Below are positions 869 to 45,618 of a stretch of 64,000 bases of DNA, piece by piece. The stretch is taken from NCBI RefSeq assembly GCF_044324875.1, contig NZ_CP172185.1. The stretch is one strand, 5' to 3'. The translations under genes were made by a program, and so were the position numbers. Under the pieces are notes generated by a model. It did not search any database, was not told where the DNA came from, and worked only from the letters and a program-made list of their open reading frames with translations. How positions within the stretch are numbered: position 1 is the stretch's first letter; each line of letters begins with the position of its first letter. Origin of the DNA: Escherichia coli (GTDB lineage: Bacteria > Pseudomonadota > Gammaproteobacteria > Enterobacterales > Enterobacteriaceae).

Positions 869-958
869 GGAGAGATGCCGGAGCGGCTGAACGGACCGGT
901 CTCGAAAACCGGAGTGGGGGCAACTCCACCGGGGGTTCAAATCCCCCTCTCTCCGCCA
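869..958 (+). tRNA. serU: tRNA-Ser (anticodon CGA), 90 nt, long variable arm
   Basis: GGAGAGATGCCGGAGCGGCTGAACGGACCGGTCTCGAAAACCGGAGTGGGGGCAACTCCACCGGGGGTTCAAATCCCCCTCTCTCCGCCA. Anticodon stem CCGGT/ACCGG with loop CTCGAAA gives anticodon CGA. The variable arm differs from the attR copy by two compensatory changes. Confidence 0.9.
898..958 (+). repeat. attL core: 61 bp 3' portion of tRNA-Ser, directly repeated at 47168..47228 with 2 mismatches
   Basis: GGTCTCGAAAACCGGAGT[G/A]GGGGCAACTC[C/T]ACCGGGGGTTCAAATCCCCCTCTCTCCGCCA occurs at both ends of the phage-gene block. Integrase gene lies immediately inside. Confidence 0.75.
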
Positions 959-1003: not shown

Positions 1004-1040
1004 CTTGGAATTACTTGGAATATTTTCTTGGAATATTTTC
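1004..1040 (+). promoter_or_regulatory. Three tandem direct repeats CTTGGAAT(A/T)TT next to attL; putative integrase arm-type binding sites
   Basis: CTTGGAATTA, CTTGGAATATTTTC, CTTGGAATATTTTC in tandem, overlapping the int stop codon. An inverted copy (TTATTCCAAG) lies near attR at about 47113..47124. Confidence 0.4.
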
Positions 1041-2036
1041 AGGTAACGGGACATCAAGTGTTGGTGAAACTTTAACCTTCCGGTCATAGATTAGCACTTG
1101 CCCTTCGGTTTTGTGACCAGAGAAAAGTTGCTTATCCCGGCTGCTTCCTTCATAGTCTGAAATTCCTTTCGCCTTCAGATCATGAAAGGTGAAGTCGGTT
1201 AAAATACCTGAAACTTTGCCTGCGCGATTTCTTGCTTCTACCCACATTTCGTTAAAGCCTTTGTACATATATCGGTTGCCGTATTGATTGCTGATCACAT
1301 AGGCGGATTTTGGTAACTGTTTTGCTTTTTCGACCGCTGCCTGTAATCGTGGACTCCATGCTTTTATCTGTTTTTTCCCTGTTTTCCCTTGCTGGATAAA
1401 GATCCCGTCGTTTCCAATCTGCTCCCATTTCAGCGATAACACATCGGAAACCCTCGCTGCACACAGATAGGCAATTTCCATTGCGATAAAAACAGGAAGG
1501 GGTGCCACGCTTAATACTGCCTGGTATTCTTTGTCGGTTACATATCGTTCGCGGTTTTTGGCCTTGAATTTACTTACTCCTGCACATGGGTTAGCCTTCA
1601 CGTACCCTCGCTCATACCCCCAACTGTAAACACGGGACATACTGCTTTTTTCATGGTTGGCTTGCGTTTTACTCTGTTCCCCTCTTTTGTCCATGTATCG
1701 ACGGATGTGTTCTGGTTTTATGGAATCCGCTGGTACCTTACCGAATACGGCAAGCAACTTTTTTTGATGTTGCAGATAATCTTTTTGTGTTCTTGGACTA
1801 AGGTCACTGTAACAGGCGCTGGCGAGGAATTTTTCCCACAAGCGACCGAATGTCATTGCACGATCGCGATTATTTACAGTTTCCTCATACTTTTTCCATA
1901 AAGCAGCTAAACCATCCTTGATGGCGGTTAGTGTTACAGATTCTCTGGATGTTGGTTTCCATACATAACTATATTTATTTGGGTATACATTTGGAGGTAA
2001 TTTTTCGTGTTCAGGATTTTTCCTTCGTCTTCCCAT
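1011..2036 (-). CDS. int: Tyrosine integrase, lambda Int family
   Basis: 341 aa ORF. N-terminus MGRRRKNPEHEKLPPNVY resembles lambda Int MGRRRSHERRDLPPNLY. Adjacent to the tRNA attachment site. Confidence 0.9.
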   Translation of the reverse strand: MGRRRKNPEHEKLPPNVYPNKYSYVWKPTSRESVTLTAIKDGLAALWKKYEETVNNRDRAMTFGRLWEKFLASACYSDLSPRTQKDYLQHQKKLLAVFGKVPADSIKPEHIRRYMDKRGEQSKTQANHEKSSMSRVYSWGYERGYVKANPCAGVSKFKAKNRERYVTDKEYQAVLSVAPLPVFIAMEIAYLCAARVSDVLSLKWEQIGNDGIFIQQGKTGKKQIKAWSPRLQAAVEKAKQLPKSAYVISNQYGNRYMYKGFNEMWVEARNRAGKVSGILTDFTFHDLKAKGISDYEGSSRDKQLFSGHKTEGQVLIYDRKVKVSPTLDVPLPENIPRKYSK

Positions 2037-7121: not shown

Positions 7122-7406
7122 TTATGTTACAGGGAACTGTCGGCGGGTATGGACTACGTTTACTATTTCAATACTTGAGGTTGTCACGCGGTACAGAATT
7201 ATATAATTGGGGTGAGCCACAATCTCACGTAAGCCTGGCACTCTGTCGCTTGGGGGGTATAAATACGGATGTTCGGATAATGGCAGCACACACCCCCTTA
7301 ATCGCTGCCATAAGCGTTCTGCCGCATCTATGTCGAAACGAGCAATGTAACTAGTTATATCATCCAGGTCGGTATCTGCGCTTTCAGGCCATAACACAGG
7401 TAACAT
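7122..7406 (-). CDS. parE: ParE/RelE-superfamily toxin (ParE2-like) of a three-gene TA cassette
   Basis: 94 aa. N-terminal LWPESADTDLDDITSYIARFDIDAAERLWQRL and C-terminal IVAHPNYIILYRV fit the ParE pattern. Start abuts the stop of the upstream antitoxin. Confidence 0.8.
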   Translation of the reverse strand: MLPVLWPESADTDLDDITSYIARFDIDAAERLWQRLRGCVLPLSEHPYLYPPSDRVPGLREIVAHPNYIILYRVTTSSIEIVNVVHTRRQFPVT

Positions 7407-7598
7407 TTACTGTTCACTCCGTTCCTTGCGTATTTTAGCAAAGCGTTCTGCCATTCTGCGCTCAACTTCGTCATGGGGAATTGCTGGGCGCGGATCTGCA
7501 AGGCTTGCAGCTACTTTGGCTCGCAGCCATTCGTTGTAACTGTTTTCTTGTTCAATAGTTTCAAACTCAGAAACCATTGGTGAAAGGGCCGTATTCAT
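7407..7598 (-). CDS. paaA: PaaA2-like antitoxin (63 aa)
   Basis: ATG at 7598 preceded by GGAGG. MNTALSPMVSEFETIEQENSYNEWLRAKVAASLADPRPAIPHDEVERRMAERFAKIRKERSEQ resembles the recalled PaaA2 antitoxin of O157 prophage three-component systems. Confidence 0.7.
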   Translation of the reverse strand: MNTALSPMVSEFETIEQENSYNEWLRAKVAASLADPRPAIPHDEVERRMAERFAKIRKERSEQ

Positions 7599-7627
7599 GG
7601 CACACCTCCGTCTGTGTATGGTGGTCA

Positions 7628-8026
7628 TTATGCCCGATGCCCTTTCCGGGCAGCGAGCCATCTTTCAATTGTGCGATCCATTAACTCTTTTTTGTCTTTC
7701 ATCTCCTGAAGCATTTGCTCTTGATCTTCCTCTGGAAATGCCTCAAATGTTTGAAGTAGCTCCTTTTGCCTAGGAGTTATTTTTATTATATCTTGTATTC
7801 TGTCATTTTTTTCTTCATTTAACGGTAAGAAGAACCAATACTGAGGATATCCTGTTGCTTCAGATAGTTTATCTAGATTAGCTGCTGTAGGGCTTGAGAT
7901 ACCACAAACCCATCTTTGAACGGATTGTTGAGTAATGCCAATTCTGCGCGCAAGTTCTGCCTGGCTCCAGCCTGTTACCAACAAAAGCTTCCTAATTCTA
8001 AGAGCACTAATTTCGAGTACACCCAT
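7628..8026 (-). CDS. paaR: PaaR-like HTH regulator (DicA paralog); start uncertain (track ORF extends to 8101 from TTG)
   Basis: XRE-type HTH (GWSQAELARRIGITQQSVQRWVCG). C-terminal LTPRQKELLQTFEAFPEEDQEQMLQEMKDKKELM is paralogous to the C-terminus of the adjacent repressor. Sits directly upstream of the antitoxin-toxin pair. Confidence 0.6.
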   Translation of the reverse strand: MGVLEISALRIRKLLLVTGWSQAELARRIGITQQSVQRWVCGISSPTAANLDKLSEATGYPQYWFFLPLNEEKNDRIQDIIKITPRQKELLQTFEAFPEEDQEQMLQEMKDKKELMDRTIERWLAARKGHRA

Positions 8027-8060
8027 CTGATATATCTTGTTTTTAAGAGTATGCTTCCCA

Positions 8061-8432
8061 TCAGGCGCGGCGACCTTGCTGCGCCAACCAACGTGCGACA
8101 AAATCTTCCATTGCTTCTTTTTTGTTTCTTAGTTCTTTTATGATCTCTTGCTGTTCATTATCAGGAAATGCACTAAATATTTGTAGCAATTCCAGCTGGT
8201 TAGGGGTTAATGCTATAGCTCTTGATGATGGAGACTCTGTTATGTCTTCTGGCTCAATATCAAGATAACCCCCTGGCATCCCATATGTTTGTTCAATACG
8301 TCTAGCTGCTTTTTCGCCAAACGTAGCCTTACCGCTCATTAACTGAGATAAGTAACTTTTCTCTTTGGGTGGCAAAGTTCTGTCTTTGAACCACTCTTTG
8401 AGGCGTAAACGCCGAATCTCTCTTGTTTCCAT
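8061..8432 (-). CDS. dicA: Prophage immunity repressor, DicA-like (HTH_XRE)
   Basis: 123 aa. HTH (SYLSQLMSGKATFGEKAARRIEQTYG) and C-terminal LTPNQLELLQIFSAFPDNEQQEIIKELRNK resemble recalled Qin DicA. Divergent from the cro-like gene. Confidence 0.75.
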   Translation of the reverse strand: METREIRRLRLKEWFKDRTLPPKEKSYLSQLMSGKATFGEKAARRIEQTYGMPGGYLDIEPEDITESPSSRAIALTPNQLELLQIFSAFPDNEQQEIIKELRNKKEAMEDFVARWLAQQGRRA

Positions 8433-12549: not shown

Positions 12550-13215
12550 ATGACTATTGCTGATTTCAAACGGCCTAAATTGGAGCTCCCGAACGGGGCA
12601 AACAAACTACTACTGCACTCTTGCTGTGCTCCATGTTCCGGTGAAGTGATGGAGGCGCTTCAGGCCTCGGGAATCGACTACACCATCTTTTTCTACAACC
12701 CGAACATTCATCCTCAGAAAGAGTATTTAATTCGTAAGGATGAAAATATTCGCTTTGCTGAACAACACGGCGTGCCGTTTATCGATGCTGATTACGACAC
12801 CGACAACTGGTTTGAACGTGCCAAAGGAATGGAATGGGAGCCTGAGAGGGGGATCCGTTGTACCATGTGTTTTGACATGCGTTTTGAGCGGACAGCGTTG
12901 TACGCTGCTGAAAATGGTTTCAGTGTGATCAGCAGTTCACTGGGCATTTCACGCTGGAAAAATATGCAGCAGGTTAACGAGTGTGGGCGGCGAGCTGTTG
13001 CGCATTATCCGGGTATGGTGTACTGGGATTATAACTGGCGCAAGCAGGGCGGCTCGTCCCGTATGATTGAAATCAGCAAGCGCGAAAAATTCTATCAGCA
13101 GGAATATTGTGGCTGTGTGTATTCTCTGCGCGATACCAATCTACACCGCAAATCTCAGGGACGCCCTCTTATAAAAATTGGCCAACTCCACTACGGAAAA
13201 GAAGAGAAGGAGTGA
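12550..13215 (+). CDS. queH: QueH-like protein (DUF208; putative cobalamin-independent epoxyqueuosine reductase)
   Basis: 221 aa with N-terminal [10 protein letters not shown] motif, FYNPNIHP...EY, and C-terminal EYCGCVYS cysteines, matching my recollection of DUF208/QueH. Preceded by about 200 bp non-coding with a TTGACA-like element. Confidence 0.6.
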
Positions 13216-13451
13216 TTTTATGGATCACCTTTCTGATTGATTTCATATTGGCGAGGTGACGGGAGTTAAGTAGAATTGCTGCGGGTGCTTGAGGCTATCT
13301 GCCTCGGGCATGAACACCAACGGCAGATAGAGAAAAGCCCCAGTTAACATTATGCGTCCTGCAAGACGCTTAACATTAATCTGAGGCAGAATCTATGTCT
13401 AGCAAATGTAGGTTAGCCTCTTACGTGCCGAAAGGCAAGGAGAAGCAGGCT

Positions 13452-13607
13452 ATGAAGCAGCAAAAGGCGATGTTAGTCGCCCTGATCGTCATCTGTATTA
13501 CCGTCATTGTGACGGCACTGGTAACGAGGAAAGACCTCTGCGAGGTACGAATCCGAACCGGCCAGACGGAGGTCGCTGTCTTCACAGCTTACGAACCTGA
13601 GGAGTAA
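13452..13607 (+). CDS. hok: Hok/Gef-family membrane toxin (type I toxin-antitoxin)
   Basis: MKQQKAMLVALIVICITVIVTALVTRKDLCEVRIRTGQTEVAVFTAYEPEE (51 aa) closely resembles HokD/RelF. Track ORF 13395..13607 carries an in-frame upstream extension. Upstream leader has inverted repeats. Confidence 0.8.
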   Translation: MKQQKAMLVALIVICITVIVTALVTRKDLCEVRIRTGQTEVAVFTAYEPEE

Positions 13608-13711
13608 GAGACCAGGCGAGGGAGAAATCCCTCGCCACCTCTGATGTGTCAGGCATTCTCAACGCACCCGCACTTAACCCGCTTCGGCTGTTCCTTAGTT
13701 TGTCCTGATTT

Positions 13712-14065
13712 TTATTTATTACTAATACATGATTTAATTCCTTGAATCCTCTTGTTTTTTCCATTGGTAGGATCTAACACACCTCGAAGAGAATAAAAAT
13801 CAATAGTGGTAGAGCCGTCTGCTGACTTATAAATGTCGGCATTATCTGCAACTGCTAATACACTGTAATATTTACCAATTTTTTGAGAAGTGATAGTATA
13901 CAAGAGAGGTACACGTTGCCACTCACTGAGAATGCATTCTTGTATTTCTTGTGGTGGAGAATTTGTTTTAAATGAAATGATAATATCCTGCTCTTCTCTA
14001 TAATTATAAGGGTTTACGCATCCAGAAATTGCGAAAGAAAACAGAAGAATAATGATCCTGTTCAT
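13712..14065 (-). CDS. Predicted lipoprotein (about 117 aa from internal Met), AT-rich
   Basis: Internal start MNRIIILLFSFAISGC gives a signal peptide plus lipobox. Gene is markedly AT-rich compared with neighbours. No known family. Confidence 0.55.
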   Translation of the reverse strand: MNRIIILLFSFAISGCVNPYNYREEQDIIISFKTNSPPQEIQECILSEWQRVPLLYTITSQKIGKYYSVLAVADNADIYKSADGSTTIDFYSLRGVLDPTNGKNKRIQGIKSCISNK

Positions 14066-14127
14066 TTTTTTGCCTCTTTTGAAAATATTACTCAATTATT
14101 TTAGTTGCGGTGTGTTATAAGCATTAA

Positions 14128-14427
14128 CTATAAAATATTAGATTCATAATTTTGTCCGCCGTGGTAAACGCCAGCGATAAAGACTTTATTGCCATCAACG
14201 GCAAAAGCAATAATCGTTCTGTGTCGGAAATGAGTTACCCGCATCCCCTGGCGAATATCATCGCGTTTATTGCCCCGATGCGGGAATGTAGAAAACCCAT
14301 CAAGATAATCAAGAAGCGCATTGGCATAATTGTCAGCAATGACGCTTCTTGCTTTCTCCGTTATATATCTGTGCAGGTTTATTATCTGCTGTTCGGCCTC
14401 GGGGGTAATGATGACTTCATATGTCAT
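14128..14427 (-). CDS. parE: ParE-family toxin (type II TA)
   Basis: 99 aa; MTYEVIITPEAEQQIINLHRYI...FRHRTIIAFAVDGNKVFIAGVYHGGQNYE fits ParE/RelE. Immediately downstream of the ParD-like gene. Confidence 0.8.
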   Translation of the reverse strand: MTYEVIITPEAEQQIINLHRYITEKARSVIADNYANALLDYLDGFSTFPHRGNKRDDIRQGMRVTHFRHRTIIAFAVDGNKVFIAGVYHGGQNYESNIL

Positions 14428-14432
14428 GCAGA

Positions 14433-14690
14433 TTACTTCCCGGATCGAATCGCGGCGCGAACCTGTGAAATGGAGCGTCCGTTGTTTGGATTTTCGCGGA
14501 TAGAATCAAGAGAGGGGGCGGCTGAATGCGTTAACCACGCTTCGATTGCTTTATCGCGCTCATTCAGTGCACGAAGCCCTTCACGAATGACCTCGCTTTC
14601 TGAAGCATAGGCACCGGAAGCCACACGGGCGCGCACCATGTCAGCCATCTCGTTAGTTAATGTAATGCTGAATTGTTGGGTTGTACGCAT
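14433..14690 (-). CDS. parD: ParD-family antitoxin (RHH)
   Basis: Internal ATG at 14690 with upstream GAGG. MRTTQQFSITLTNEMADMVRARVASGAYASESEVIREGLRAL is the typical ParD N-terminus. Confidence 0.75.
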   Translation of the reverse strand: MRTTQQFSITLTNEMADMVRARVASGAYASESEVIREGLRALNERDKAIEAWLTHSAAPSLDSIRENPNNGRSISQVRAAIRSGK

Positions 14691-14825
14691 GGTAAACCTC
14701 ACGGAGTAGGATAGAACACTATTCGATGATAGCACGCTGCCTGTTGACGACAACAGAAATCAGAGACAATATTGCCGCACGCCAGCCTGAACAACTGGCA
14801 CCTGCTGCGCCAGCAGAGAAAACAA

Positions 14826-34031: not shown

Positions 34032-35474
34032 ATGGGTAAAGGCAGCAGTAAGGGGCATACCCCGCGCGAAGCGAAGGACAACCTGAAGTCCACGCAGTTG
34101 CTGAGTGTGATCGATGTCATCAGCGAAGGGCCGATACAAGGACCGGTGGATGGATTAAAAAGCGTGCTGCTGAACGGTACGCCGGTGCTGGACAGTGAGG
34201 GGAATACCAATATATCCGGCGTCACGGTGGTATTCCGGGCCGGTGAGCAGGAGCAGACGCCGCCGGAGGGATTTGAATCCTCCGGCTCCGAGACGGTGCT
34301 GGGTACGGAAGTGAAGTACGACACGCCGATTACCCGGACCATCACGTCGGCAAACATCGACCGTCTGCGCCTGACCTTCGGTGTGCAGGCACTGGTGGAA
34401 ACCACCTCAAAGGGGGACCGGAATCCGTCGGAAGTCCGCCTGCTGGTTCAGATACAGCGTAACGGTCGCTGGTTAACGGAAAAAGACATCACCATTAAGG
34501 GCAAAACCACCTCGCAGTATCTGGCCTCGGTGGTGGTGGGTAACCTGCCGCCGCGCCCGTTCAGTATCCGGATGCGCAGGATGACGCCGGACAGCACCAC
34601 AGACCAGCTGCAGAACAAAACGCTCTGGTCGTCATACACCGAAATCATCGATGTGAAACAGTGCTACCCGAACACGGCACTGGTCGGTGTGCAGGTGGAT
34701 TCGGAGCAGTTCGGCAGCCAGCAGGTGAGCCGTAATTATCATCTTCGCGGGCGCATTCTGCAGGTGCCGTCGAACTATAACCCGCAGACGCGGCAATACA
34801 GCGGTATCTGGGACGGAACGTTTAAACCGGCATACAGCAACAACCCGGCCTGGTGTCTGTGGGATATGCTGACCCATCCGCGCTACGGCATGGGGAAACG
34901 TGTTGGCGCAGCGGATGTGGATAAATGGGCGCTGTATGTCATCGGCCAGTACTGCGACCAGTCAGTGCCGGACGGCTCTGGTGGCACGGAGCCGCGCATC
35001 ACCTGTAATGCCTGGCTGACCACACAGCGTAAGGCGTGGGATGTGCTCAGTGATTTCTGCTCGGCGATGCGCTGTATGCCGGTATGGAACGGGCAGACGC
35101 TGACGTTCGTGCAGGACCGACCGTCGGATAAGGTGTGGACCTATAACCGCAGTAATGTGGTGATGCCGGATGATGGCGCGCCGTTCCGCTACAGCTTCAG
35201 CGCCCTGAAGGACCGCCATAATGCCGTTGAGGTGAACTGGAGTGACCCGGATAACGGCCAGGAGACGGCGACAGAGCTTGTGGAGGACACGCAGGCCATT
35301 GCCCGTTACGGTCGTAACGTCACGAAGATGGATGCCTTTGGCTGTACCAGCCGGGGGCAGGCACACCGCGCCGGGCTGTGGCTGATTAAAACAGAACTGC
35401 TGGAGACGCAGACCGTGGATTTCAGCGTGGGTGCTGAAGGGCTTCGCCATGTACCGGTGCAAAATGGCATCTGA
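34032..35474 (+). pseudogene. J: Host specificity protein J, N-terminal fragment (interrupted by IS21-family insertion at about 35458)
   Basis: MGKGSSKGHTPREAKDNLKSTQLLSVIDVISEGPIQGPVDGLKSVLLNGTPVLD matches lambda J. The reading frame runs into the IS and stops at 35474. Confidence 0.85.
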
Positions 35475-35659
35475 ATCGATCGCAGTTTGGCATTCGAATC
35501 GATCATGATTTGGCATCCATCTCCGATCACAGTTTGGCATCACAATCGATCACGATTTGGCATGCTTCCGATCATTGATTGGCATCCTGCCAGTCACTCC
35601 GGGAATTAACTCTTTTCACCACAGTCTCCATTGCCGTGTTTAAACCAGTGGAGACGTCA

Positions 35660-37225
35660 ATGTCCAGAAAGAGAAAATCCAGGAGCACTATGGAAACCTG
35701 TTTTAAGATCCTTCAGCTCAAGTTCGACAAGAAGCTGACTAACCGTTGTATCGGACTGACGTTACACATCAGCGCCTCAACCGTTTTTGAGGTTCTTGCC
35801 CGCTTCAAAGCCTCTTCTCTGTCATGGCCATTACCTGCTGATATATCCCATGACACGCTGGAGAAACTCATTTTTCCGCCCAAAGACACCTTTGCATCAG
35901 AGCTTGTAATGCCTGACATGTTGTACTTCGATACGGAAATGAGAAAACCAGGTGTGACGCGGCAACTGTTGTGGATGGAATACAAGGCACAGGCGGGTAA
36001 CAAAGCGATGGGATACTCGCACTTCTGCCGTTGCTACCGGGAGTGGAAAAAAACGCGACGTCTCTCCATGCGCCAGGAGCATCGTGCCGGCGAAAAGCTT
36101 TTTATCGACTTCTGTGGTCCTACGGTTCCTGTTATTAATCCGGACACCGGTGAGATACGCCGCGTGGCAATCTTCGTGGCCGTAATGGGGGCGTCCAACT
36201 ATACCTACGTTGAAGCGTGCGAAGGTCAGGACATGATGTCATGGTTAAATGCCCACAGCCGTTGCCTGACCTTCCTGGGCGGCGTACCGAAGCTGCTCAT
36301 CCCCGATAACCTCAGAAGCGCAGTGAAAAAGGCCGATCGATATGAGCCTGTCATCAACGACAGTTATCAGGCACTGGCTGAGCACTATGGCACGGTTATC
36401 ATCCCGGCCCGACCACGCAAACCTAAAGATAAACCAAAAGCAGAAAACGGCGTCCTCATCGTTGAACGATGGCTTCTTGCCCGCATCCGTAATGAAACCT
36501 TCCACACGCTCAGGGCGCTGAATGCGCGCCTTAGGGAGTTACTGACAGACATGAATAACCGGCCAATGAAGGGGTACGGCAATCAAACCCGTGCAGAACG
36601 CTTCCGCATACTGGATGCGCCAGCACTCTCTCCGCTGCCTCTGGCACCTTATGAATACACGGAATACAAAGCTGTGAAGGTTGGCCCTGACTACCACGTT
36701 GAATATGCCCGTCACTGGTACTCCGTTCCACACGAACTGGTCGGTCAGCGTCTGTCACTGAAGGCGGGGCAGTCGGTGGTACAGCTCTGGCACAAGGGGC
36801 AGTGTGTGGCGCAACATCCGCGCAGCACACATGAATATAAACACACAACCAATCCGCTTCACATGCCAGAGCGCCACCGGCAGCACGGGACATGGACACC
36901 GGAACGCCTGATCGAGCAGGGAAAACGTACGGGCCCGTCCACAGGCCGGGTGGTTGAATCCATGCTGAAGGCAAAACCCCATCCGGAACTGGCTTATCGT
37001 GCAGTTCTGGGGCTGCTGGCACTTCAGAAAAAATACGGCCCGGAACGGCTGGAAAAGGCCTGTTACGTTGCCCTGCACTATAACGCCCCTGACAGACGCT
37101 TTATCGACAATCTGCTGCGTCACCATCGGGAGAACCTGGAGCTTCCATTATCCCGCCAGGGCGAACAACATCCGGCATATGCTTCAGAGCATGAAAACCT
37201 GCGTGGTCCGGGCTACTACCACTGA
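35660..37225 (+). CDS. istA: IS21-family transposase IstA
   Basis: Internal ATG at 35660 with GGAG RBS; about 521 aa with N-terminal HTH and DDE-type core. Confidence 0.85.
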   Translation: MSRKRKSRSTMETCFKILQLKFDKKLTNRCIGLTLHISASTVFEVLARFKASSLSWPLPADISHDTLEKLIFPPKDTFASELVMPDMLYFDTEMRKPGVTRQLLWMEYKAQAGNKAMGYSHFCRCYREWKKTRRLSMRQEHRAGEKLFIDFCGPTVPVINPDTGEIRRVAIFVAVMGASNYTYVEACEGQDMMSWLNAHSRCLTFLGGVPKLLIPDNLRSAVKKADRYEPVINDSYQALAEHYGTVIIPARPRKPKDKPKAENGVLIVERWLLARIRNETFHTLRALNARLRELLTDMNNRPMKGYGNQTRAERFRILDAPALSPLPLAPYEYTEYKAVKVGPDYHVEYARHWYSVPHELVGQRLSLKAGQSVVQLWHKGQCVAQHPRSTHEYKHTTNPLHMPERHRQHGTWTPERLIEQGKRTGPSTGRVVESMLKAKPHPELAYRAVLGLLALQKKYGPERLEKACYVALHYNAPDRRFIDNLLRHHRENLELPLSRQGEQHPAYASEHENLRGPGYYH

Positions 37226-37241
37226 CAGAAGGAACAACAGT

Positions 37242-37997
37242 ATGAGTGATAACCTGTTAAACAAACTGACCCAACTGAAACTCCCGGCGATGGCCGGGAG
37301 CCTGATACGGCAGCGGGAAACGCCTCAGACCTACGACGAACTGTCGTTCGAGGAAAGGCTGACGCTGCTGGTTGATGACGAGCTTCTGAGCAGGGAAAAC
37401 AGCCGTGTGGCACGGTTGAGAAAAAATGCCGGCCTGAAATACCAGGCAACACCGGAAGGGCTGCGCTATCCGGCCTCAAGAGGTCTGCGGGCTGAACAGA
37501 TGAGAGAACTGCTGAACGGCCACTACATAACCCACAGGAAAAACCTGCTGATAACCGGTCCGACAGGATGTGGCAAGAGCTGGATAGCCAATGCGCTGGG
37601 CGAACAGGCATGTCGACAGAAACACAGCGTCCGGTACTGTAGAACCGGGCGATTACTGGAACAACTGGCTCAGGGACGTGTTGATGGCAGCTGGCTGAAA
37701 TATCTGAAACAGTTGCAAAAAATACAGGTTCTAATCCTGGACGATCTGGGGCTGGAACAGTTAAGTAACGCCCAGTGTAATGACCTTCTGGAGCTCATAG
37801 AGGATCGTTACGGACAAAGCAGCACGATAGTGGTAAGCCAGTTCCCGGTAGATAAATGGCATGGTCTGATGGAGAACCCAACAACAGCAGATGCCATCCT
37901 GGACAGACTGGTACATAACTCACACCGAGTGGTCCTTCAGGGAGAGTCACTGAGGAAAAATCCCCCGGTAGTGGAAAGCAGCGAAAAAACGCGTTAA
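37242..37997 (+). CDS. istB: IS21-family ATP-binding helper IstB
   Basis: MSDNLLNKLTQLKLPAMAGSL...LITGPTGCGKSWIANALG (Walker A)...LILDDLG (Walker B). Confidence 0.85.
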   Translation: MSDNLLNKLTQLKLPAMAGSLIRQRETPQTYDELSFEERLTLLVDDELLSRENSRVARLRKNAGLKYQATPEGLRYPASRGLRAEQMRELLNGHYITHRKNLLITGPTGCGKSWIANALGEQACRQKHSVRYCRTGRLLEQLAQGRVDGSWLKYLKQLQKIQVLILDDLGLEQLSNAQCNDLLELIEDRYGQSSTIVVSQFPVDKWHGLMENPTTADAILDRLVHNSHRVVLQGESLRKNPPVVESSEKTR

Positions 37998-38096: not shown

Positions 38097-40219
38097 TACC
38101 GGGCGATGTCATTGAAATCTGTGATGATGACTATGCCGGTATCAGCACCGGTGGTCGTGTGCTGGCGGTGAACAGCCAGACCCGGACGCTGACGCTCGAC
38201 CGTGAAATCACGCTGCCATCCTCCGGTACCACGCTGATAAGCCTGGTTGACGGAAGTGGCAATCCGGTCAGCGTGGAGGTTCAGTCCGTCACCGACGGCG
38301 TGAAGGTAAAAGTGAGCCGGGTTCCTGACGGCGTTGCCGAGTACAGCGTGTGGGGGCTGAAGCTGCCGACGCTGCGCCAGCGCCTGTTCCGCTGCGTGAG
38401 TATCCGTGAGAACGACGACGGCACGTATGCCATCACTGCCGTGCAGCATGTACCGGAAAAAGAGGGCATCGTGGATAACGGGGCACACTTTGACGGTGAC
38501 CAGAGCGGCACGGTGAATGGTGTCACGCCGCCAGCAGTGCAGCACCTGACTGTCGAAGTCACCGCAGACAGCGGGGAGTATCAGGTACTGGCCCGCTGGG
38601 ACACGCCGAAGGTGGTGAAAGGCGTGAGTTTCATGCTTCGCCTGACCGTGGCAGCGGATGACGGCAGTGAGCGGCTGGTCAGCACGGCCCGGACGACGGA
38701 AACCACATACCGCTTCAGGCAGCTGGCGCCGGGGAACTACAGGCTGACAGTCCGGGCAGTAAATGCCCGGGGGCAGCAGGGAGACCCGGCGTCGGTATCG
38801 TTCCGGATTGCCGCACCGGCAGCGCCGTCGCGGATTGAGCTGACGCCGGGCTATTTTCAGATAACCGCCACGCCGCATCTTGCCGTTTATGATCCGACGG
38901 TGCAGTTTGAGTTCTGGTTCTCGGAAAAGCGGATTACCGATATCAGGCAGGTTGAAACCACAGCCCGTTATCTTGGTACCGGAAGTCAGTGGCTTGTCTC
39001 CGGCCAGAATATTAAACCTGGCCATGATTATTACTTTTATATCCGCAGTGTTAACACTGTCGGTAAATCGGCATTCGTGGAGGCAGTCGGTCGGGCGAGT
39101 AATGATCCTGCCGGTTACCTTAATTTTTTCAGGGGGGCGATAAATAAAACGCATCTGGGACGGGAGATCAATGAACGCATTGATGCCTCTGCACGGCGCA
39201 CTGAAGTTGAGCAACTGGAGAATGCGATTAACCGCGAAATGACGCAGCTGGAGAATGCGATTAACCGCGAAATGACGCAGCTGGAGAAAGATGTGAGGCA
39301 GCGTGCGGAGCGTGATATCGCAGAGGTGACGAAAAAAATCACGGCGTCTGAAAACAGCATAACGGAACTGGTGGCGAAAAAGAGCGGTGAACAGTCGCTG
39401 GCCATTGCGAAAGTCGACAGGAAAGTTGACAGCGTGAGCAGTGAAATCCGGCAGACAGTAAGCAGGAGCACGGAGGAGAACAGCCGACAGATAGCGCAGG
39501 TCAGGCAGTATGTTGATGATAAAAGTGCGCAAATAAGTACTGTTGTGGCGAAAAAGAGCGGTGAACAGTCAATGGCCATTGCGGAAGTTGACAGAAAAGT
39601 TGACAGGATGGGCAGCGAAATCCGGCAGACAGTAAGCAGGAGCACGGAGGAGAACAGCCGACAGATAGCGCAGATCAGACAGTATGTTGATGATAAGGGA
39701 AGTCAGATCAAACAGAGCACGGATAAAAAACTGGGATCCTGGAATGCCAGCATTGAGCAGATACAGAAAGTTCAGGAGGACACGCGCCGGAACCTGAACA
39801 GCATGTGGGCTGTGAAGCTGCAGCAGACACGGGATGGACGTCTCTATATTGCAGGTATTGGTGCCGGAATCGAAAATACGTCTGACGGAATTCAGAGTCA
39901 GATCCTGATGCAGGCAGATCGTATTGCGATGATTAACCCGGAAAATGGCAATACAACACCTTTGTTTGTGGCTCAGGGTGATCAGCTGTTCATGAATGAT
40001 GTTTTCATGAAAAAACTGACCGTGGATTTTGCCAGAGTGACGGGAGATATCCGGTCAGATAATTTTCATTCCGGTAGTCCGGGGTGGCGTTTATCAAGAA
40101 ACGGCAGCCTTGAAATTAACTCAGGAAGGCCCGGCGCAGGCCGCCTGTTTTTCAATGGCGAGCGAATCGACGTATATGACGATAACAATGTGTTAAGAGT
40201 ACGACTGGGGAGACTGTAA
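38097..40219 (+). pseudogene. J: Host specificity protein J, C-terminal fragment (distal tip diverges from lambda and carries tandem duplications)
   Basis: Continues the lambda-J-like sequence [43 protein letters not shown]. Track ORF 38159..40219. Confidence 0.85.
39214..39718 (+). repeat. Tandem duplications inside the J distal region: 2 x 33 bp and 2 x about 174 bp
   Basis: CTGGAGAATGCGATTAACCGCGAAATGACGCAG twice ([11 protein letters not shown] x2). A larger unit starting GTGGCGAAAAAGAGCGGTGAACAGTC repeats at about 39371 and 39545 with about 90 percent identity. Confidence 0.7.
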
Positions 40220-40479
40220 TGTTCGGAGTCCGGGTATGGCGCAAAGGGCGCCTTGTGACACATGAAATAAACCCAACAGGGGTGCTGGATGTGATCACTG
40301 AAGGGACGGGGCAGCGTTCTTATACTCCTTTGCAGGGCTGGCGTCTGGAAGTCTGTTCACCGGCCATTCTGATTAACGGTCAGGGAAGTCATACCAGTGC
40401 CAGTGTATCCGGCTGGACAGTGCACTATGCCAACACAAGCTGGCTAAGACCCGTGCTGGTCATGATAAGGGGGATCTGA
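40219..40479 (+). CDS. Hypothetical protein (86 aa), translationally coupled to J
   Basis: Start overlaps the J stop (TAATG); no known motif. Confidence 0.5.
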   Translation: MFGVRVWRKGRLVTHEINPTGVLDVITEGTGQRSYTPLQGWRLEVCSPAILINGQGSHTSASVSGWTVHYANTSWLRPVLVMIRGI

Positions 40480-41141
40480 TGTTTGCACTTAAATTAACTG
40501 ATGAGCGGGGGAGAGAATGGATATCACCTGTTGCGCCGCCACTGAACCTTGTGCGCCGTTTTCATTTCACACTGAGTGCGCGTGATGCGGTGATGCAGTT
40601 TATCGACACCGGGGTGCCGACGAATTATCGTTGCGTGATTTTTATTAAACAGATAAGCGGTAATCAGTCCTTCCATGGTGAAATGGTTCAGCTTAACGGT
40701 ACCTGGCAGTATGACATTTTCAGCGCTGGTACAGGGCAGGAGCCGGGCATGGAACAGGACAGCACATATGTTGTTTATGTTTTTGCCAACATGGTGAATG
40801 TATGGCCGCAATGGGGAATACAGTTGTGCGACAGTCATGGCAGGGTGGTCTGGAACACGGAAATGCTGCCACTGGAAGTAAAAATGACGCGAATATGGGA
40901 AAAGGATGTACCGATCAGTGTGGGACATGATGTGGCCGTAATGCCGGGGTGTACCCAGTGGACGACAGTTCAGGAAGGGGAGAGTTATTACTGGTATACC
41001 GCCAGTTTTAATGCCAGAAACTCACAGTTATGGCGTCAGTCAACTTTTGCTGAAGATAACGTAGCGGCGCCCAATGATAATTCAGGTGTTGTTAATAACC
41101 TCTGTTATTACATAAATGCAGAAATTTATGATGCGTACTGA
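40479..41141 (+). CDS. Hypothetical protein (220 aa) downstream of J
   Basis: Start overlaps the previous stop (TGATG); Trp/Tyr-rich; no family recognised. Confidence 0.5.
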   Translation: MFALKLTDERGREWISPVAPPLNLVRRFHFTLSARDAVMQFIDTGVPTNYRCVIFIKQISGNQSFHGEMVQLNGTWQYDIFSAGTGQEPGMEQDSTYVVYVFANMVNVWPQWGIQLCDSHGRVVWNTEMLPLEVKMTRIWEKDVPISVGHDVAVMPGCTQWTTVQEGESYYWYTASFNARNSQLWRQSTFAEDNVAAPNDNSGVVNNLCYYINAEIYDAY

Positions 41142-41162
41142 TAGTTATGTTGAGGGCATGTA

Positions 41163-41408
41163 ATGAAAATAATCGTCTGCACTTTTTTGCTGTTTCTTGT
41201 ATCAGGTTGCGCGGGGTACCGTTCCGTTACGGAGAGAGTCCGGTGCACCGGTGTGCTGAGTCCCGGGGTTTTACAGCGAGCTTATACGGTAGATCTTACA
41301 GGGAAAATAGAAACGAAAAGCGGCACTGTGTATAAAGTATCAGCTCCGAGATTTTATGGTCAGTGGGTGAGTGAAGATATGTTTACGAAAGTTTCGTGCG
41401 TGAAGTAA
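41163..41408 (+). CDS. Small predicted lipoprotein (81 aa); possible Cor-like superinfection-exclusion protein
   Basis: MKIIVCTFLLFLVSGC lipobox; located between J and the side tail fibre, where cor-type genes sit in some lambdoid phages. Function is inferred from position only. Confidence 0.5.
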   Translation: MKIIVCTFLLFLVSGCAGYRSVTERVRCTGVLSPGVLQRAYTVDLTGKIETKSGTVYKVSAPRFYGQWVSEDMFTKVSCVK

Positions 41409-41483: not shown

Positions 41484-42812
41484 ATGGCGGCTGTAAAAAT
41501 TTCAGGCGTGCTCAGGGACGGAACCGGAAAACCGGTACCGGGATGCATTATTGAGCTGAAAGCGAAGAGAACCAGCGAGACAGTCATCGCCACGACAGTG
41601 GCTTATGGCATGCCGGAAGAGACGGGGAGTTACAGTATGGATGTGGAGCCAGGAATATACAGGGTGACACTCAATACAGAAGGTTACCGTCCTTCGTATG
41701 TGGGAGATATCGTGGTCAGGGAGGATTCTTCACCGGGAACACTGAATAAATTTCTGATGGAGATGGAAGATGCTCCTTATTATCCGAAGGCGTTGTCAGA
41801 GCTGGAGGCTGTGGTGCAGTCCATACTGCACAGAGCAGAGTCCGCGGCATCTGAGGCGGAGGAAGCCCGGAAGCGAGCAGCATCTGCCCGGGGACCACGA
41901 GGAGAGAAAGGGGATACCGGCGCTCGTGGTGAAAGAGGCATTACCGGGCCACAGGGGCCAAAAGGTGAAACAGGAGCACGTGGCCCGGCAGGACCACAGG
42001 GACCAAAAGGTGAAACAGGTGAACGCGGTCCGGCAGGTCCACAGGGACCAAAGGGCGATACAGGTGAACGCGGCCCGGCAGGTCCACAGGGACCAAAAGG
42101 TGAAACAGGTGCACGTGGTCCGGAAGGTCCACAGGGAGCAAAAGGTGAAACAGGTGAACGCGGCCCGGCAGGTCCACAGGGAGCAAAGGGCGAAACAGGT
42201 GCACGTGGTCCGGAAGGCCCTCAGGGTCTGAAGGGAGAAAAGGGTGAGCGAGGAGAAAAAGGCCCTAAGGGGGATAAAGGAGATCCGGGAGGTCCACAGG
42301 GACCAAAAGGTGAAACAGGTGAACGTGGCCCGGCAGGTCCACAGGGACCAAAAGGTGAAACAGGTGAACGTGGCCCGGCAGGTCCACAGGGACCAAAGGG
42401 CGATACAGGTGAACGCGGTCCGGCAGGTCCACAGGGGCCAAGAGGGTATACAGGTGAACGCGGGCCGACAGGTCTACAGGGGCCAAGAGGGTATACAGGT
42501 GAACGCGGGCCGGCAGGTCCACAGGGGCCAAGAGGAGAAGCGGGGCGGCCAGCGAGCGTCGGAAGTGTTTATTCCGTGGGGTCTTATGTTCTGGGGATCA
42601 TAGAACGAAATCATGAGATAACAAATACCCGTCAAATACCCGGGTATCGTATCAGACAGGCCGTTATTGTGTCGTCGTCATCGGATAAACTTACAGATAT
42701 CCGCTTTTTATTTGGCAATCCTATGCTTGGTACATGGATGTTATGCACAACTAACATGGCGGTGAATAATATCAGTGGGACGATTTGGGGCCTGTTTCAG
42801 AGAATACTGTGA
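41484..42812 (+). CDS. stf: Side tail fibre protein with collagen-like Gly-X-Y repeats
   Basis: N-terminal tail-fibre domain ([63 protein letters not shown]) followed by about 70 G-X-Y triplets. Confidence 0.85.
41884..42546 (+). repeat. Collagen-like triplet repeat array (tandem about 45 bp units) within the tail fibre gene
   Basis: Repeated GGTCCACAGGGACCAAAAGGTGAAACAGGTGAACGCGGCCCGGCA-type units encoding [15 protein letters not shown]; explains the many antisense ORFs in the track here. Confidence 0.8.
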
Positions 42813-42950: not shown

Positions 42951-43032
42951 TAACCGGCTCATTTAAACCGTCTGGTCTGTTTCCTCCGGCTCTACAAAAA
43001 TAATGTCCATCATTTTTAATGGACACTATCGT

Positions 43033-43680
43033 ATGAAACACCGGACCTGGATCACTGAAGCTTTACGTCTTCACTTTGAAGAACATTTACCCCGGGTTGT
43101 GGCCGGGCGTCGCCTGGGTGTACCAAAATCAACAGTTTGTAGTATGTTCGTGCGCTTTCGGAGAGCTGGCCTTTCGTGGCCTTTGCCCGCAGGCATGTCG
43201 GAGCAGGAACTTGATGCCTGCCTTTACGGACAATTTTCCACGGTACCAGTCGTACGTCCTGAAAGCACCGTTATATCCGAAGCCCCCGTGGTAAAAAAAC
43301 GTCCCCGGCGGCCCAACTTCCCTTATGAGTTTAAAATCGCCTTAGTGGAGCAGTCACTGCAGCCCGGAGCCTGTGTGGCGCAGATCGCCCGGGAAAACGG
43401 AATCAACGATAACCTGCTCTTCAACTGGCGCCATCAATACCGGAAAGGTGGCCTGCTGCCTTCCGGAAAAAATATGCCGGCACTGCTTCCCGTGACGTTA
43501 ACGCCGGAGCCGGATAATAAAATCCCGGCCCCCGCACAGGAACCAGAGCAGATAAATACACCGTCCGACAGTCTGTGTTGTGAGCTGGTTCTGCCGGCCG
43601 GAACTCTCAGGCTTAAAGGTAAACTGACGCCGGCGTTATTACAGACACTTATCCGCGAAATAAAAGGGAGCAGCCACTGA
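43033..43680 (+). CDS. tnpA: IS66-family accessory protein TnpA (orf1)
   Basis: Internal Met of track ORF 43003..43680; HTH-like N-terminus. Confidence 0.7.
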   Translation: MKHRTWITEALRLHFEEHLPRVVAGRRLGVPKSTVCSMFVRFRRAGLSWPLPAGMSEQELDACLYGQFSTVPVVRPESTVISEAPVVKKRPRRPNFPYEFKIALVEQSLQPGACVAQIARENGINDNLLFNWRHQYRKGGLLPSGKNMPALLPVTLTPEPDNKIPAPAQEPEQINTPSDSLCCELVLPAGTLRLKGKLTPALLQTLIREIKGSSH

Positions 43681-44027
43681 TGATATCTCTCCCTGCAGGT
43701 TCGCGTATCTGGCTGGTTGCAGGTATCACCGATATGCGAAATGGCTTTAACGGCCTGGCATCAAAAGTTCAGAACGTCCTGAAGGATGACCCGTTCTCCG
43801 GACACCTGTTCATCTTCCGCGGACGCCGGGGTGACCAGATAAAAGTGTTGTGGGCTGACAGTGACGGACTGTGCCTCTTCACCAAACGCCTGGAGCGGGG
43901 CCGCTTCGTCTGGCCAGTCACCCGTGACGGCAAGGTGCACCTTACTCCGGCTCAGTTATCCATGCTTCTTGAAGGTATCAACTGGAAGCACCCGAAACGA
44001 ACGGAACGCGCTGGAATCCGCATATAA
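43680..44027 (+). CDS. tnpB: IS66-family TnpB (orf2)
   Basis: 115 aa; MISLPAGSRIWLVAGITDMRNGFNGLASKVQNVLKDDPFSGHLFIFRGRRGDQIKVLWAD is the typical IS66 Orf2. Confidence 0.85.
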   Translation: MISLPAGSRIWLVAGITDMRNGFNGLASKVQNVLKDDPFSGHLFIFRGRRGDQIKVLWADSDGLCLFTKRLERGRFVWPVTRDGKVHLTPAQLSMLLEGINWKHPKRTERAGIRI

Positions 44028-44046
44028 CCCGTTGTAAAGTGAGGAT

Positions 44047-45618
44047 ATGGACACCTCACTTGCTCATGAGAACGCCCGCCTGCGGGCACTGTTGCAGACG
44101 CAACAGGACACCATCCGCCAGATGGCTGAATACAACCGCCTGCTCTCACAGCGGGTGGCGGCTTATGCTTCCGAAATCAACCGGCTGAAGGCGCTGGTTG
44201 CGAAACTGCAACGTATGCAGTTCGGTAAAAGCTCAGAAAAACTTCGTGCAAAAACCGAACGGCAGATACAGGAAGCACAGGAGCGAATCAGCGCACTTCA
44301 GGAAGAAATGGCGGAAACGCTGGGTGAGCAATATGACCCGGTACTGCCATCCGCCCTGCGCCAGTCTTCAGCCCGTAAACCGTTACCGGCCTCACTTCCC
44401 CGTGAAACCCGGGTTATCCGGCCGGAAGAGGAATGCTGTCCTGCCTGTGGTGGTGAACTCAGTTCTCTGGGATGTGATGTGTCAGAGCAACTGGAGCTTA
44501 TCAGCAGCGCCTTTAAGGTTATCGAAACACAACGTCCGAAACAGGCCTGTTGCCGGTGCGACCATATCGTGCAGGCACCAGTACCTTCAAAACCCATTGC
44601 ACGCAGTTATGCCGGAGCGGGGCTTCTGGCCCATGTTGTCACCGGGAAATATGCAGACCATCTGCCGTTATACCGCCAGTCAGAAATATACCGTCGTCAG
44701 GGAGTGGAGCTGAGCCGTGCCACACTGGGGCGCTGGACAGGTGCTGTTGCTGAACTGCTGGAGCCGCTGTATGACGTCCTGCGCCAGTATGTGCTGATGC
44801 CCGGTAAAGTCCATGCTGATGATATCCCCGTCCCGGTCCAGGAGCCGGGCAGCGGTAAAACCCGGACAGCCCGGCTGTGGGTCTACGTCCGTGATGACCG
44901 TAACGCCGGTTCACAGATGCCCCCGGCGGTCTGGTTCGCGTACAGTCCGGACCGGAAAGGTATCCATCCACAAAATCACCTGGCCGGTTACAGCGGTGTG
45001 CTTCAGGCCGATGCTTACGGTGGTTACCGGGCGTTATACGAATCCGGCAGAATAACGGAAGCCGCGTGTATGGCTCATGCCCGGAGAAAAATCCACGATG
45101 TGCATGCAAGAGCGCCCACCTACATCACCACGGAAGCCCTGCAGCGTATCGGTGAACTGTATGCCATCGAGGCAGAGGTCCGGGGCTGTTCAGCAGAACA
45201 GCGTCTGGCGGCAAGAAAAGCCAGAGCCGCGCCACTGATGCAGTCACTGTATGACTGGATACAGCAACAGATGAAAACACTGTCGCGTCACTCAGATACG
45301 GCAAAAGCGTTCGCATACCTGCTGAAACAGTGGGATGCACTGAACGTGTACTGCAGTAATGGCTGGGTGGAAATCGACAACAACATCGCAGAGAACGCCT
45401 TACGGGGAGTGGCCGTAGGCCGGAAAAACTGGATGTTCGCGGGTTCCGACAGCGGTGGTGAACATGCGGCGGTGTTGTACTCGCTGATCGGCACATGCCG
45501 TCTGAACAATGTGGAGCCAGAAAAGTGGCTGCGTTACGTCATTGAACATATCCAGGACTGGCCGGCAAACCGGGTACGCGATCTGTTGCCCTGGAAAGTT
45601 GATCTGAGCTCTCAGTAA
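44047..45618 (+). CDS. tnpC: IS66-family transposase TnpC (orf3)
   Basis: 523 aa with N-terminal coiled coil, Cys cluster CPACGG...CCRCDH, and DDE-type core. Confidence 0.85.

Follow-up and report, generated by a model that had tools for sequence, protein, structure and literature searches.

The 64,000-nucleotide stretch of Escherichia coli contig NZ_CP172185.1 (assembly GCF_044324875.1) analyzed here, referred to below as the window, contains a mosaic accessory cluster of ordinary modules, situated within the nin region of a lambdoid prophage that is defective. The cluster appears to consist of a rightward hok/sok type I toxin-antitoxin (TA) locus and a leftward three-gene unit, parD-parE-lipoprotein, the last gene of which encodes a 117-aa lipoprotein of the phage protein family PHROG 914 and is the main subject of this analysis. 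From replication to Q the prophage genes lie on the plus strand, and the only minus-strand genes in that interval are those for the lipoprotein, ParE, and ParD. The original prediction had described the lipoprotein gene, hok, and parDE as a minus-strand-heavy insert in an otherwise rightward operon; this description fits the lipoprotein, parE, and parD genes, which do run leftward, but not hok, which is on the plus strand, so that the leftward block counts three genes rather than four. It had also assigned three TA systems to the prophage, a count confirmed, at the level of sequence, by matches to Rfam, Pfam, TIGR02606, PHROG, and PDB entries.

The lipoprotein open reading frame (ORF) is real and, as originally proposed, far more AT-rich than its neighbors. 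Its guanine-plus-cytosine (GC) content is 33.3% (25% at third codon positions), compared with 42.7% for parE, 52.3% for parD, 51.6% for hok, and 50.0% for the window, and the spacer separating it from parE drops to 25.8%. Of all 354-nt windows, just 1.0% reach the AT-richness of the lipoprotein coding sequence (CDS), and its region forms the sole trough of ≤36% GC inside the prophage. The encoded N terminus (MNRIIILLFSFAISG, followed by C16) comprises a signal peptide and the lipobox AISG-C16, which fits the pattern [LVI][ASTVI][GAS]C, and a Shine-Dalgarno sequence, AGAGG, is located 8 to 9 nt before the ATG.

Comparison with a second allele, from E. coli GXU-23-25-310, delimited the AT-rich DNA as an exchangeable cassette. 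The two lipoprotein alleles share 84.5% DNA identity and 87% protein identity, with a ratio of nonsynonymous to synonymous substitution rates (dN/dS) of 0.095 at a dS of 0.76, and the hok and parD flanks are >99% identical. The divergent block extends from ~13669 to ~14160 (6371..6862 in L001) and fills the gap between the phage matches to the hok module, which end at 13688, and the matches to the parDE module, which begin at 14143; genomes with parDE but without the lipoprotein likewise match the window from 14143 rightwards. As the limits of divergence match the gap between the two modules, the gene is carried on a cassette of ~0.45 to 0.5 kb (GC content of 31.7% across 13689-14142) with two old alleles and recently shared flanks, a pattern that suggests either recombinational replacement of the cassette or long-term coexistence of the alleles. 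The dN/dS ratio and the presence of homologs across phages indicate that the lipoprotein gene is genuine and under purifying selection. Overall, the data identify it as a horizontally acquired AT-rich moron.

Within E. coli, the exact window protein is encoded on ~487 contigs, and members of the family are present in about a thousand assemblies; among complete RefSeq genomes the gene was found in 6 of 5,426, all with the other allele. The order ParD-ParE-lipoprotein recurred in 10 of the 10 places read for the exact protein and in six IMG/VR loci, with hok beyond the lipoprotein gene wherever the E. coli contig continues and with Q and nin genes that differ among the prophages around the unit. 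The fixed unit in E. coli is parD-parE-lipoprotein, hok being a separate plus-strand module.

The invariance of this gene order fits co-transcription from the TA promoter. A scan of the 62-bp spacer between parE and the lipoprotein gene for promoters and terminators detected no terminator and no promoter site reaching threshold, and a promoter-like site upstream of parD is a candidate promoter for a parD-parE-lipoprotein transcript, as inferred from its match to the consensus. Most likely, the autoregulated parD promoter would drive transcription of the lipoprotein gene in the lysogen, providing steady expression there on the strand opposite lytic transcription.

Outside E. coli, family genes were located in a lambda-like tail cluster in 18 of the 19 IMG/VR loci as well as in 13 other loci, always on the tail-gene strand; the 19th IMG/VR locus, L026, has no identifiable neighbors, and three very short contigs gave no context. 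The clusters are otherwise collinear around the inserted gene, which occupies one of several slots: between M and L (Rahnella, L006, L034, L040, and L042), between H and M (L037; the L010 contig opens at the gene, with gpM next), between the tail assembly chaperone (TAC) and tape measure protein (TMP) genes (Serratia L005), or 0.7 to 3.5 kb downstream of J (14 IMG/VR loci, including L031, where an integrase gene follows directly). A more distant subfamily fits tightly between K and I, its members lying 29 to 45 nt from gpK and gpI (P0020, P0023, P0093, gp19 of coliphage HK140, and p54 of Serratia OS31); P0052 also immediately precedes gpI and is separated from gpK by other genes. Members were also detected by tblastn in coliphage mEpX2, two Klebsiella phages, and Bordetella PHB09, whose neighboring genes were not read. 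Cultured phages with a member include HK140, mEpX2, and Serratia OS31.

In 33 of 34 loci the GC content of the family gene was below that of its flanks, by 8 points on average. The L034 copy has, according to a consensus scan, its own promoter-like site (10 of 12 matches, with TG) and a canonical intrinsic terminator. A base composition unlike that of the neighbors and insertion between genes that are adjacent in relatives are among the marks of a moron in the sense of Juhala et al. (2000), as summarized in PMC3594210, and the promoter-gene-terminator layout of L034 is the anatomy for which the term was coined. The subfamily of the window protein, marked by a YSLRG motif, is mobile; its E. coli members are attached to parDE. 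In L043/L044, the distant member P0022 (5001..5360) is found on the chromosome as an orphan flanked by pepN and an acyltransferase gene, with a DDE transposase gene next to it; this is the only non-phage context seen for the family.

The statement in the original prediction that the lipoprotein has no known family was correct as regards Pfam, NCBIfam, and PADLOC, none of which returned a match to it or a usable match to any of 32 family members (the Pfam LPAM_1 model matched some of them, weakly), but not as regards PHROG 914, a family of unknown function that the lipoprotein matches over its full length (E = 3e-25). A word-indexed search recovered 12 clusters, and a hidden Markov model search of 1.84 billion representatives recovered 43 proteins (50%-identity clusters) at E ≤ 0.001. 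The majority of the 43 are lipoproteins of 111 to 136 aa; the remainder consist of fragments and of much longer proteins with a weak partial match. Full-length homologs with as little as 21% identity retain the lipobox and the cysteines. The family was aligned in two sets, A1 and the wide A2 (32 sequences); in the latter, C16 (the site of lipid attachment), C44, D77, and C113 are invariant and R23, W49, V69, R106, and I110 nearly so. A sequence profile search of PDB gave only noise (E of ~1 to an ABC solute-binding protein), and literature searches on the accession and on PHROG 914 found no papers.

Residue +2 of the mature protein is Val in the window lipoprotein and V, A, T, S, M, or Q in the sequences read, never Asp. 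In E. coli, Asp at +2 is the inner-membrane retention signal, and the Lol sorting rule of this species therefore predicts an outer membrane location. Judging from these features, the lipoprotein is exported and lipid anchored, with ~100 mature residues, and is probably located in the outer membrane, facing the periplasm. The AlphaFold2 (AF2) model has a predicted local distance difference test score (pLDDT) of 81.7, with a core of 63 residues at ≥90, and its element order, beta-alpha-beta4-alpha, corresponds to a generic predicted fold. In this model C44 is in helix 1 and C113 is in helix 2, and a C44-C113 disulfide joining the two helices is plausible. The homology searches and structure prediction that had been proposed for the lipoprotein thus yielded a family and a model but no similarity to tested exclusion proteins. 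The protein belongs to a catalogued phage family without assigned function and to none of the Cor, Bor, and Llp families, although in kind it is, as they are, an envelope lipoprotein encoded by a moron.

The modules flanking the lipoprotein gene on either side are TA systems. The sok antisense/hok leader structure was recognized by Rfam RF01794 at 13283-13457 (114.9 bits, against a gathering score of 59), and the Hok peptide, with its overlapping mok frame, by NF007279 (1e-12) and PHROG 251 (2e-32), the combination that characterizes a Hok/Sok type I locus. Phage matches to the hok segment span query positions 1-389, corresponding to 13300-13688. ParE matches ParE_toxin (PF05016, 1e-9) over residues 5-94 of 99 and the "toxin" family PHROG 5232 (7e-40), and ParD matches TIGR02606 (53.8 bits; cutoff, 46.2) and PHROG 6494 (1.7e-56). 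The parD frame in the ORF list reaches a TTG at 14753; RefSeq homologs use the ATG start of the 85-aa form. A ParE-fold toxin with an antitoxin of the ribbon-helix-helix/CC2985 type encoded directly upstream in one operon would make ParDE a type II pair. In the third system, PaaR2-PaaA2-ParE2, ParE2 matches PDB 5CW7_B (2.6e-58) and PaaA2 matches 3ZBE_A (2.2e-34) at near-identity, and the cassette is also matched by the RelB-family model NF050103. All three are known systems that are ordinary in lambdoid and Shiga toxin (Stx)-type prophages. PADLOC-DB models gave 0 families for the lipoprotein, ParE, ParD, Hok, and QueH.

The host prophage is lambdoid, defective, and integrated at mtfA/tRNA-Ser. 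Bases 1-1000 of the window, with 99.7% identity to the mtfA-tRNA-Ser region of many E. coli strains, are E. coli chromosome, and from there the prophage genes run in the order integrase, PaaR2-PaaA2-ParE2, repressor/cro-like, replication, nin region, Q, lysis, head, and tail, the lambda-like tail genes being ordered H-M-L-K-I-J (Table 1). J is interrupted by an element of the IS21 insertion sequence (IS) family, and the prophage therefore cannot make a functional tail tip. Together with a complete IS66-family element, this insertion points to a decaying prophage in which the TA and moron genes are still retained. Within 40479..41408, a gene for a lom-like membrane protein (PHROG 425) precedes one for a Cor-like lipoprotein of 81 aa. 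The 81-aa product matches the Cor family PHROG 1119 (8e-7) and, with 28.4 bits, scores below the cutoff of 31 of the Cor model NF047972; its gene is a second lipoprotein moron of the same prophage, unrelated to that for the 117-aa protein. The nin region also contains, just upstream of hok, a gene for a homolog of the tRNA-modification enzyme QueH, a gene that also stands beside the hok-lipoprotein-parDE unit in several other E. coli prophages; its presence on a lambdoid prophage is without explanation here.

Table 1. Coordinates of the prophage features in the window
Feature	Position	Strand	Evidence or remark
tRNA-Ser(cga)	869-958		Lambdoid prophage starts at this site
Integrase	1011..2036		First prophage gene
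PaaR2-PaaA2-ParE2 cassette, three genes	7122..8101	-	Third TA system; outside 13608-14760
DicA-like helix-turn-helix gene	7628..8101		Upstream of PaaA2-ParE2
QueH homolog (epoxyqueuosine reductase), full-length	12550..13215		PF02677, 1e-65; PHROG 3217, "unknown function"
hok/mok/sok type I TA locus	13283..13688	+	Phage hok-locus homology stops at 13688
mok ORF, 70 aa	13395..13607	+	Contains the hok CDS
hok CDS	13452..13607	+	Overlapped by the mok frame
Exchangeable AT-rich cassette (moron) with the lipoprotein gene	13669..14160	-	Between near-identical hok and parDE flanks
Lipoprotein gene, 117 aa	13712..14065	-	ORF, PHROG 914, family alignments
Spacer between parE and lipoprotein gene, 62 bp	14066..14127	-	Sequence; 26% GC
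parE, RelE/ParE-family toxin, 99 aa	14128..14427	-	PF05016, PHROG 5232, RefSeq annotation of homologs
parD, antitoxin, 85 aa	14433..14690	-	5 nt upstream of parE
Promoter-like site, TTGTCG-16-TG-TATCAT	14726..14753	-	Upstream of parD; 9/12 consensus matches plus extended -10
J (central tail fiber), two pieces	34032..35474 and 38159..40219		Interrupted by IS21-family element
IS21-family element within J	35579..37997		istA, 35579..37225; istB, 36999..37997
Cor-like exclusion lipoprotein, 81 aa	41163..41408	+	Downstream of J and the lom-like gene; lipobox scan
Side tail fiber gene	41484..42812		
IS66-family element, complete (tnpA, tnpB, transposase)	43003..45618		Directly after the side tail fiber gene

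As regards function, phage tails are assembled in the cytoplasm, and a signal-peptide lipoprotein, being exported, is thus unlikely to be part of the virion. Our best guess, held with less than even confidence, is superinfection exclusion, i.e., a lysogenic conversion of the envelope that would block siphophage adsorption or DNA entry. The original prediction of a candidate surface-exclusion or defense factor is reasonable and is indirectly supported by the near-exclusive residence of the family in lambda-like tail-tip clusters, and exclusion appears the most likely function because envelope proteins encoded among siphophage tail genes have repeatedly proved to be superinfection-exclusion factors. 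HK97 gp15 and Cor are the tail-module precedents (PMC3594210), and exclusion lipoproteins include Llp and Rtp45 (PMC12685063) and Lpp021 and Lpp010 of the mEp phages (PMC11893012). The lipoprotein would follow the same logic as Cor, Llp, Rtp45, or HK97 gp15 while being an unrelated protein, and its target would not be tied to the receptor-binding domain of J. Taken as a whole, with a mosaic cluster, an acquired moron, expression in the lysogen, and an exclusion role, the explanation comes close to an even chance without quite reaching it.

A tail-cluster lipoprotein encoded just before gpI has also been described in the Pseudomonas phage AH14a and proposed by its authors, without a test, to be Cor-like (PMC4936722). 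The satellite AH14b, which has no structural genes, keeps a gpI homolog followed by a 140-aa lipoprotein homologous to that of its helper AH14a (PMC4936722). This pairing hints at a functional link between gpI and that lipoprotein; membership of the AH14a and AH14b proteins in PHROG 914 was not verified.

Several observations weigh against an exclusion role. The lipoprotein resembles none of Cor, Llp, Rtp45, and Bor in sequence or fold and is not matched by PADLOC, and the proposed co-transcription with parDE rests on consensus scans only. In a Mantel test of 17 tail-embedded loci, a small sample from which side fibers were left out, the correlation of the lipoprotein with the J C terminus was r = 0.36, and the values for gpL, gpM, and gpK were 0.37 to 0.43 (gpK, 0.40), rising to 0.45 when the J N-terminal part is included. 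Such similar correlations across the tail genes reflect shared phylogeny only, with no specific link. Nearly identical lipoproteins are moreover paired with J C termini that differ by 50 to 80%. Finally, Cor-like lipoproteins co-occur with the family in the window and in L024 and L031, which argues that it is not the Cor substitute. In L031 (7590..7823) and L024 (8027..8254), the Cor-like gene encodes a lipoprotein of 75 to 77 aa and is located shortly after J, before a fiber gene; these two were assigned by size and position, and the family member of both relatives lies near the prophage end.

A strict receptor-matched blocker of the Cor/Llp type was rejected, as the correlation with the J C terminus, in this small sample, is no higher than those with gpL, gpM, and gpK. 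Adjacency to gpK in the slot between K and I also raised the idea that the lipoprotein is an inhibitor of the gpK NlpC/P60 domain, in an effector-immunity-like arrangement; there was no co-variation specific to gpK (r = 0.40), and the idea is retained only as part of the receptor-independent reading considered below. Lpp021 of mEp021, a 72-aa lipoprotein with tested exclusion activity, had no tblastn match and can be regarded only as an analog.

It is conceivable, if rather improbable, that PHROG 914 constitutes a receptor-independent class of exclusion proteins directed against lambda-like tails, which would intercept a conserved tail-tip component or step at the periplasmic face. The step concerned may be the passage through the periplasm that depends on gpI, gpK, or the tape measure. 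A class of this kind would explain at once the linkage to the slot between gpK and gpI, the absence of co-variation with J, and the coexistence with Cor-type genes.

An explanation we consider unlikely is that the lipoprotein is a host-fitness conversion factor of the Bor/Lom type, changing the envelope (in serum resistance, adhesion, stress, or permeability) to the benefit of the lysogen without any effect on phages. The precedent is Bor, a lipoprotein from a lambda moron whose role is directed at the host (cited in PMC3594210). The moron anatomy and plausible lysogen expression fit, as do retention of the gene in a defective prophage whose J is interrupted by IS21 and the wide occurrence of the exact protein among E. 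coli isolates on the ~487 contigs mentioned above. That the lipoprotein does not co-vary with the receptor-binding end of J points the same way, and the additional presence of a Cor-like gene calls for a role that is not redundant with it. Against this, the protein has no Pfam or NCBIfam similarity to Bor or to virulence lipoprotein families, and just one locus type (L043/L044) falls outside a recognizable phage context. The close packing of the gene between gpK and gpI in phages of Escherichia, Klebsiella, Serratia, Bordetella, and Pseudomonas-like hosts also argues for a phage-centered function, as it implies co-expression with the tail genes late in infection.

A further possibility is a lytic-cycle helper of lambda-like tails, exported and made late together with the tail genes, of which the window gene would be a relic. 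In the manner proposed for T5 Llp, such a protein would mask a receptor or envelope component so that neither debris nor the dying cell captures progeny virions; alternatively, it would neutralize a periplasmic tail-tip component. In a defective prophage it would have little current function. Members in the slot between K and I, at 29 to 45 nt from either gene, have no room for a promoter and hence belong to the late operon, and the function described for Llp and Rtp45 of lytic phages is to keep virions from adsorbing non-productively to infected cells and lysis debris (PMC12685063). However, the window subfamily has relocated to several further sites and is able to bring along a promoter and terminator of its own; its E. 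coli copies, moreover, are tied to a TA operon that runs against the direction of the lytic transcript. The strong purifying selection that persists also fits lysogen expression better than a relic, and we regard the helper role as improbable.

Every E. coli locus read has the order parD-parE-lipoprotein, with a spacer of 62 to 65 bp and no terminator, which might alternatively mean that the lipoprotein is a third functional component of ParDE, acting as a modulator or effector. This is very hard to sustain and close to refuted, because the modules occur independently: many E. coli genomes, as well as phage ArgO145, have the same parDE but lack the lipoprotein, and the family occurs without parDE in all tail-module loci. 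In addition, ParD and ParE are cytoplasmic and the lipoprotein is exported, and the two differ in GC content and divergence. That the gene is a chance ORF in AT-rich spacer DNA, for which the lack of a Pfam or NCBIfam match and the small number of stop-free frames that arise by chance in AT-rich DNA were considered, can be dismissed with near certainty, since a dN/dS of 0.095 at a dS of 0.76, full-length homologs down to 21% identity with conserved lipobox and cysteines, a confident AF2 core, and a good Shine-Dalgarno sequence speak for a real gene, the first two being sufficient to rule a spurious ORF out.

As for the three TA systems, they are textbook cases that contribute nothing new. Of more use is the lipoprotein, which belongs to a compact phage-borne family with easily manipulated representatives in HK140 and mEpX2, and the tail-tip-cluster address of this family gives a clear and cheap hypothesis. 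If exclusion proved true, with a protein unrelated to Cor and Llp and not tied to a receptor, it would represent a new mechanism in phage-phage competition and would add to the determinants of phage host range known for E. coli, with consequences for phage therapy and for the spread of Stx phages. If instead the host-fitness explanation proved true, the gene would be another Bor-like conversion gene; for both outcomes the evidence is contextual.

Among known systems, Cor of phi80, N15, and HK022 (NF047972, PHROG 1119) resembles the window family in being a small phage lipoprotein with a lipobox and a +2 residue other than Asp, encoded in or next to lambdoid tail genes and thought to act at the periplasmic side of the outer membrane. 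It differs in size, at ~78 aa compared with a 117-aa precursor, and in predicted fold, and the 117-aa lipoprotein had no match to either Cor model at E ≤ 0.1. The solved structures of T5 Llp and Rtp45, which bind FhuA and LptDE, respectively, from the periplasm (PMC12685063), have no sequence or fold similarity to the window lipoprotein; a logic possibly shared with them is that of an outer-membrane-anchored periplasmic lipoprotein that alters a receptor against the receptor-binding protein of a phage (PMC12685063).

HK97 gp15, the first moron described, is expressed from the prophage, is encoded in a lambdoid tail operon with a GC content unlike that of its neighbors, and excludes phages independently of the receptor (PMC3594210). 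The L005 relative of the window gene occupies the very slot of gp15, between TAC and TMP. In contrast to the window protein, gp15 is a YebO-like inner-membrane protein and not a lipoprotein, and no homology between them was detected. Lambda Bor (PF06291) is likewise a lambdoid moron encoding an outer-membrane lipoprotein of ~100 aa, expressed in the lysogen and conferring serum resistance. Its gene is beside the lysis genes, whereas the window family is found among tail genes or, in the case of E. coli, adjoining parDE, and the Pfam Lambda_Bor model did not match the window lipoprotein at E ≤ 10. The closest likeness is to HK140 gp19, the mEpX2 member, and Serratia OS31 p54, a "phage-related lipoprotein": although these have only ~25 to 30% identity to the window protein, and gp19 and p54 occupy the tight slot between gpK and gpI, they share its lipobox, cysteines, and length and belong to the same family.

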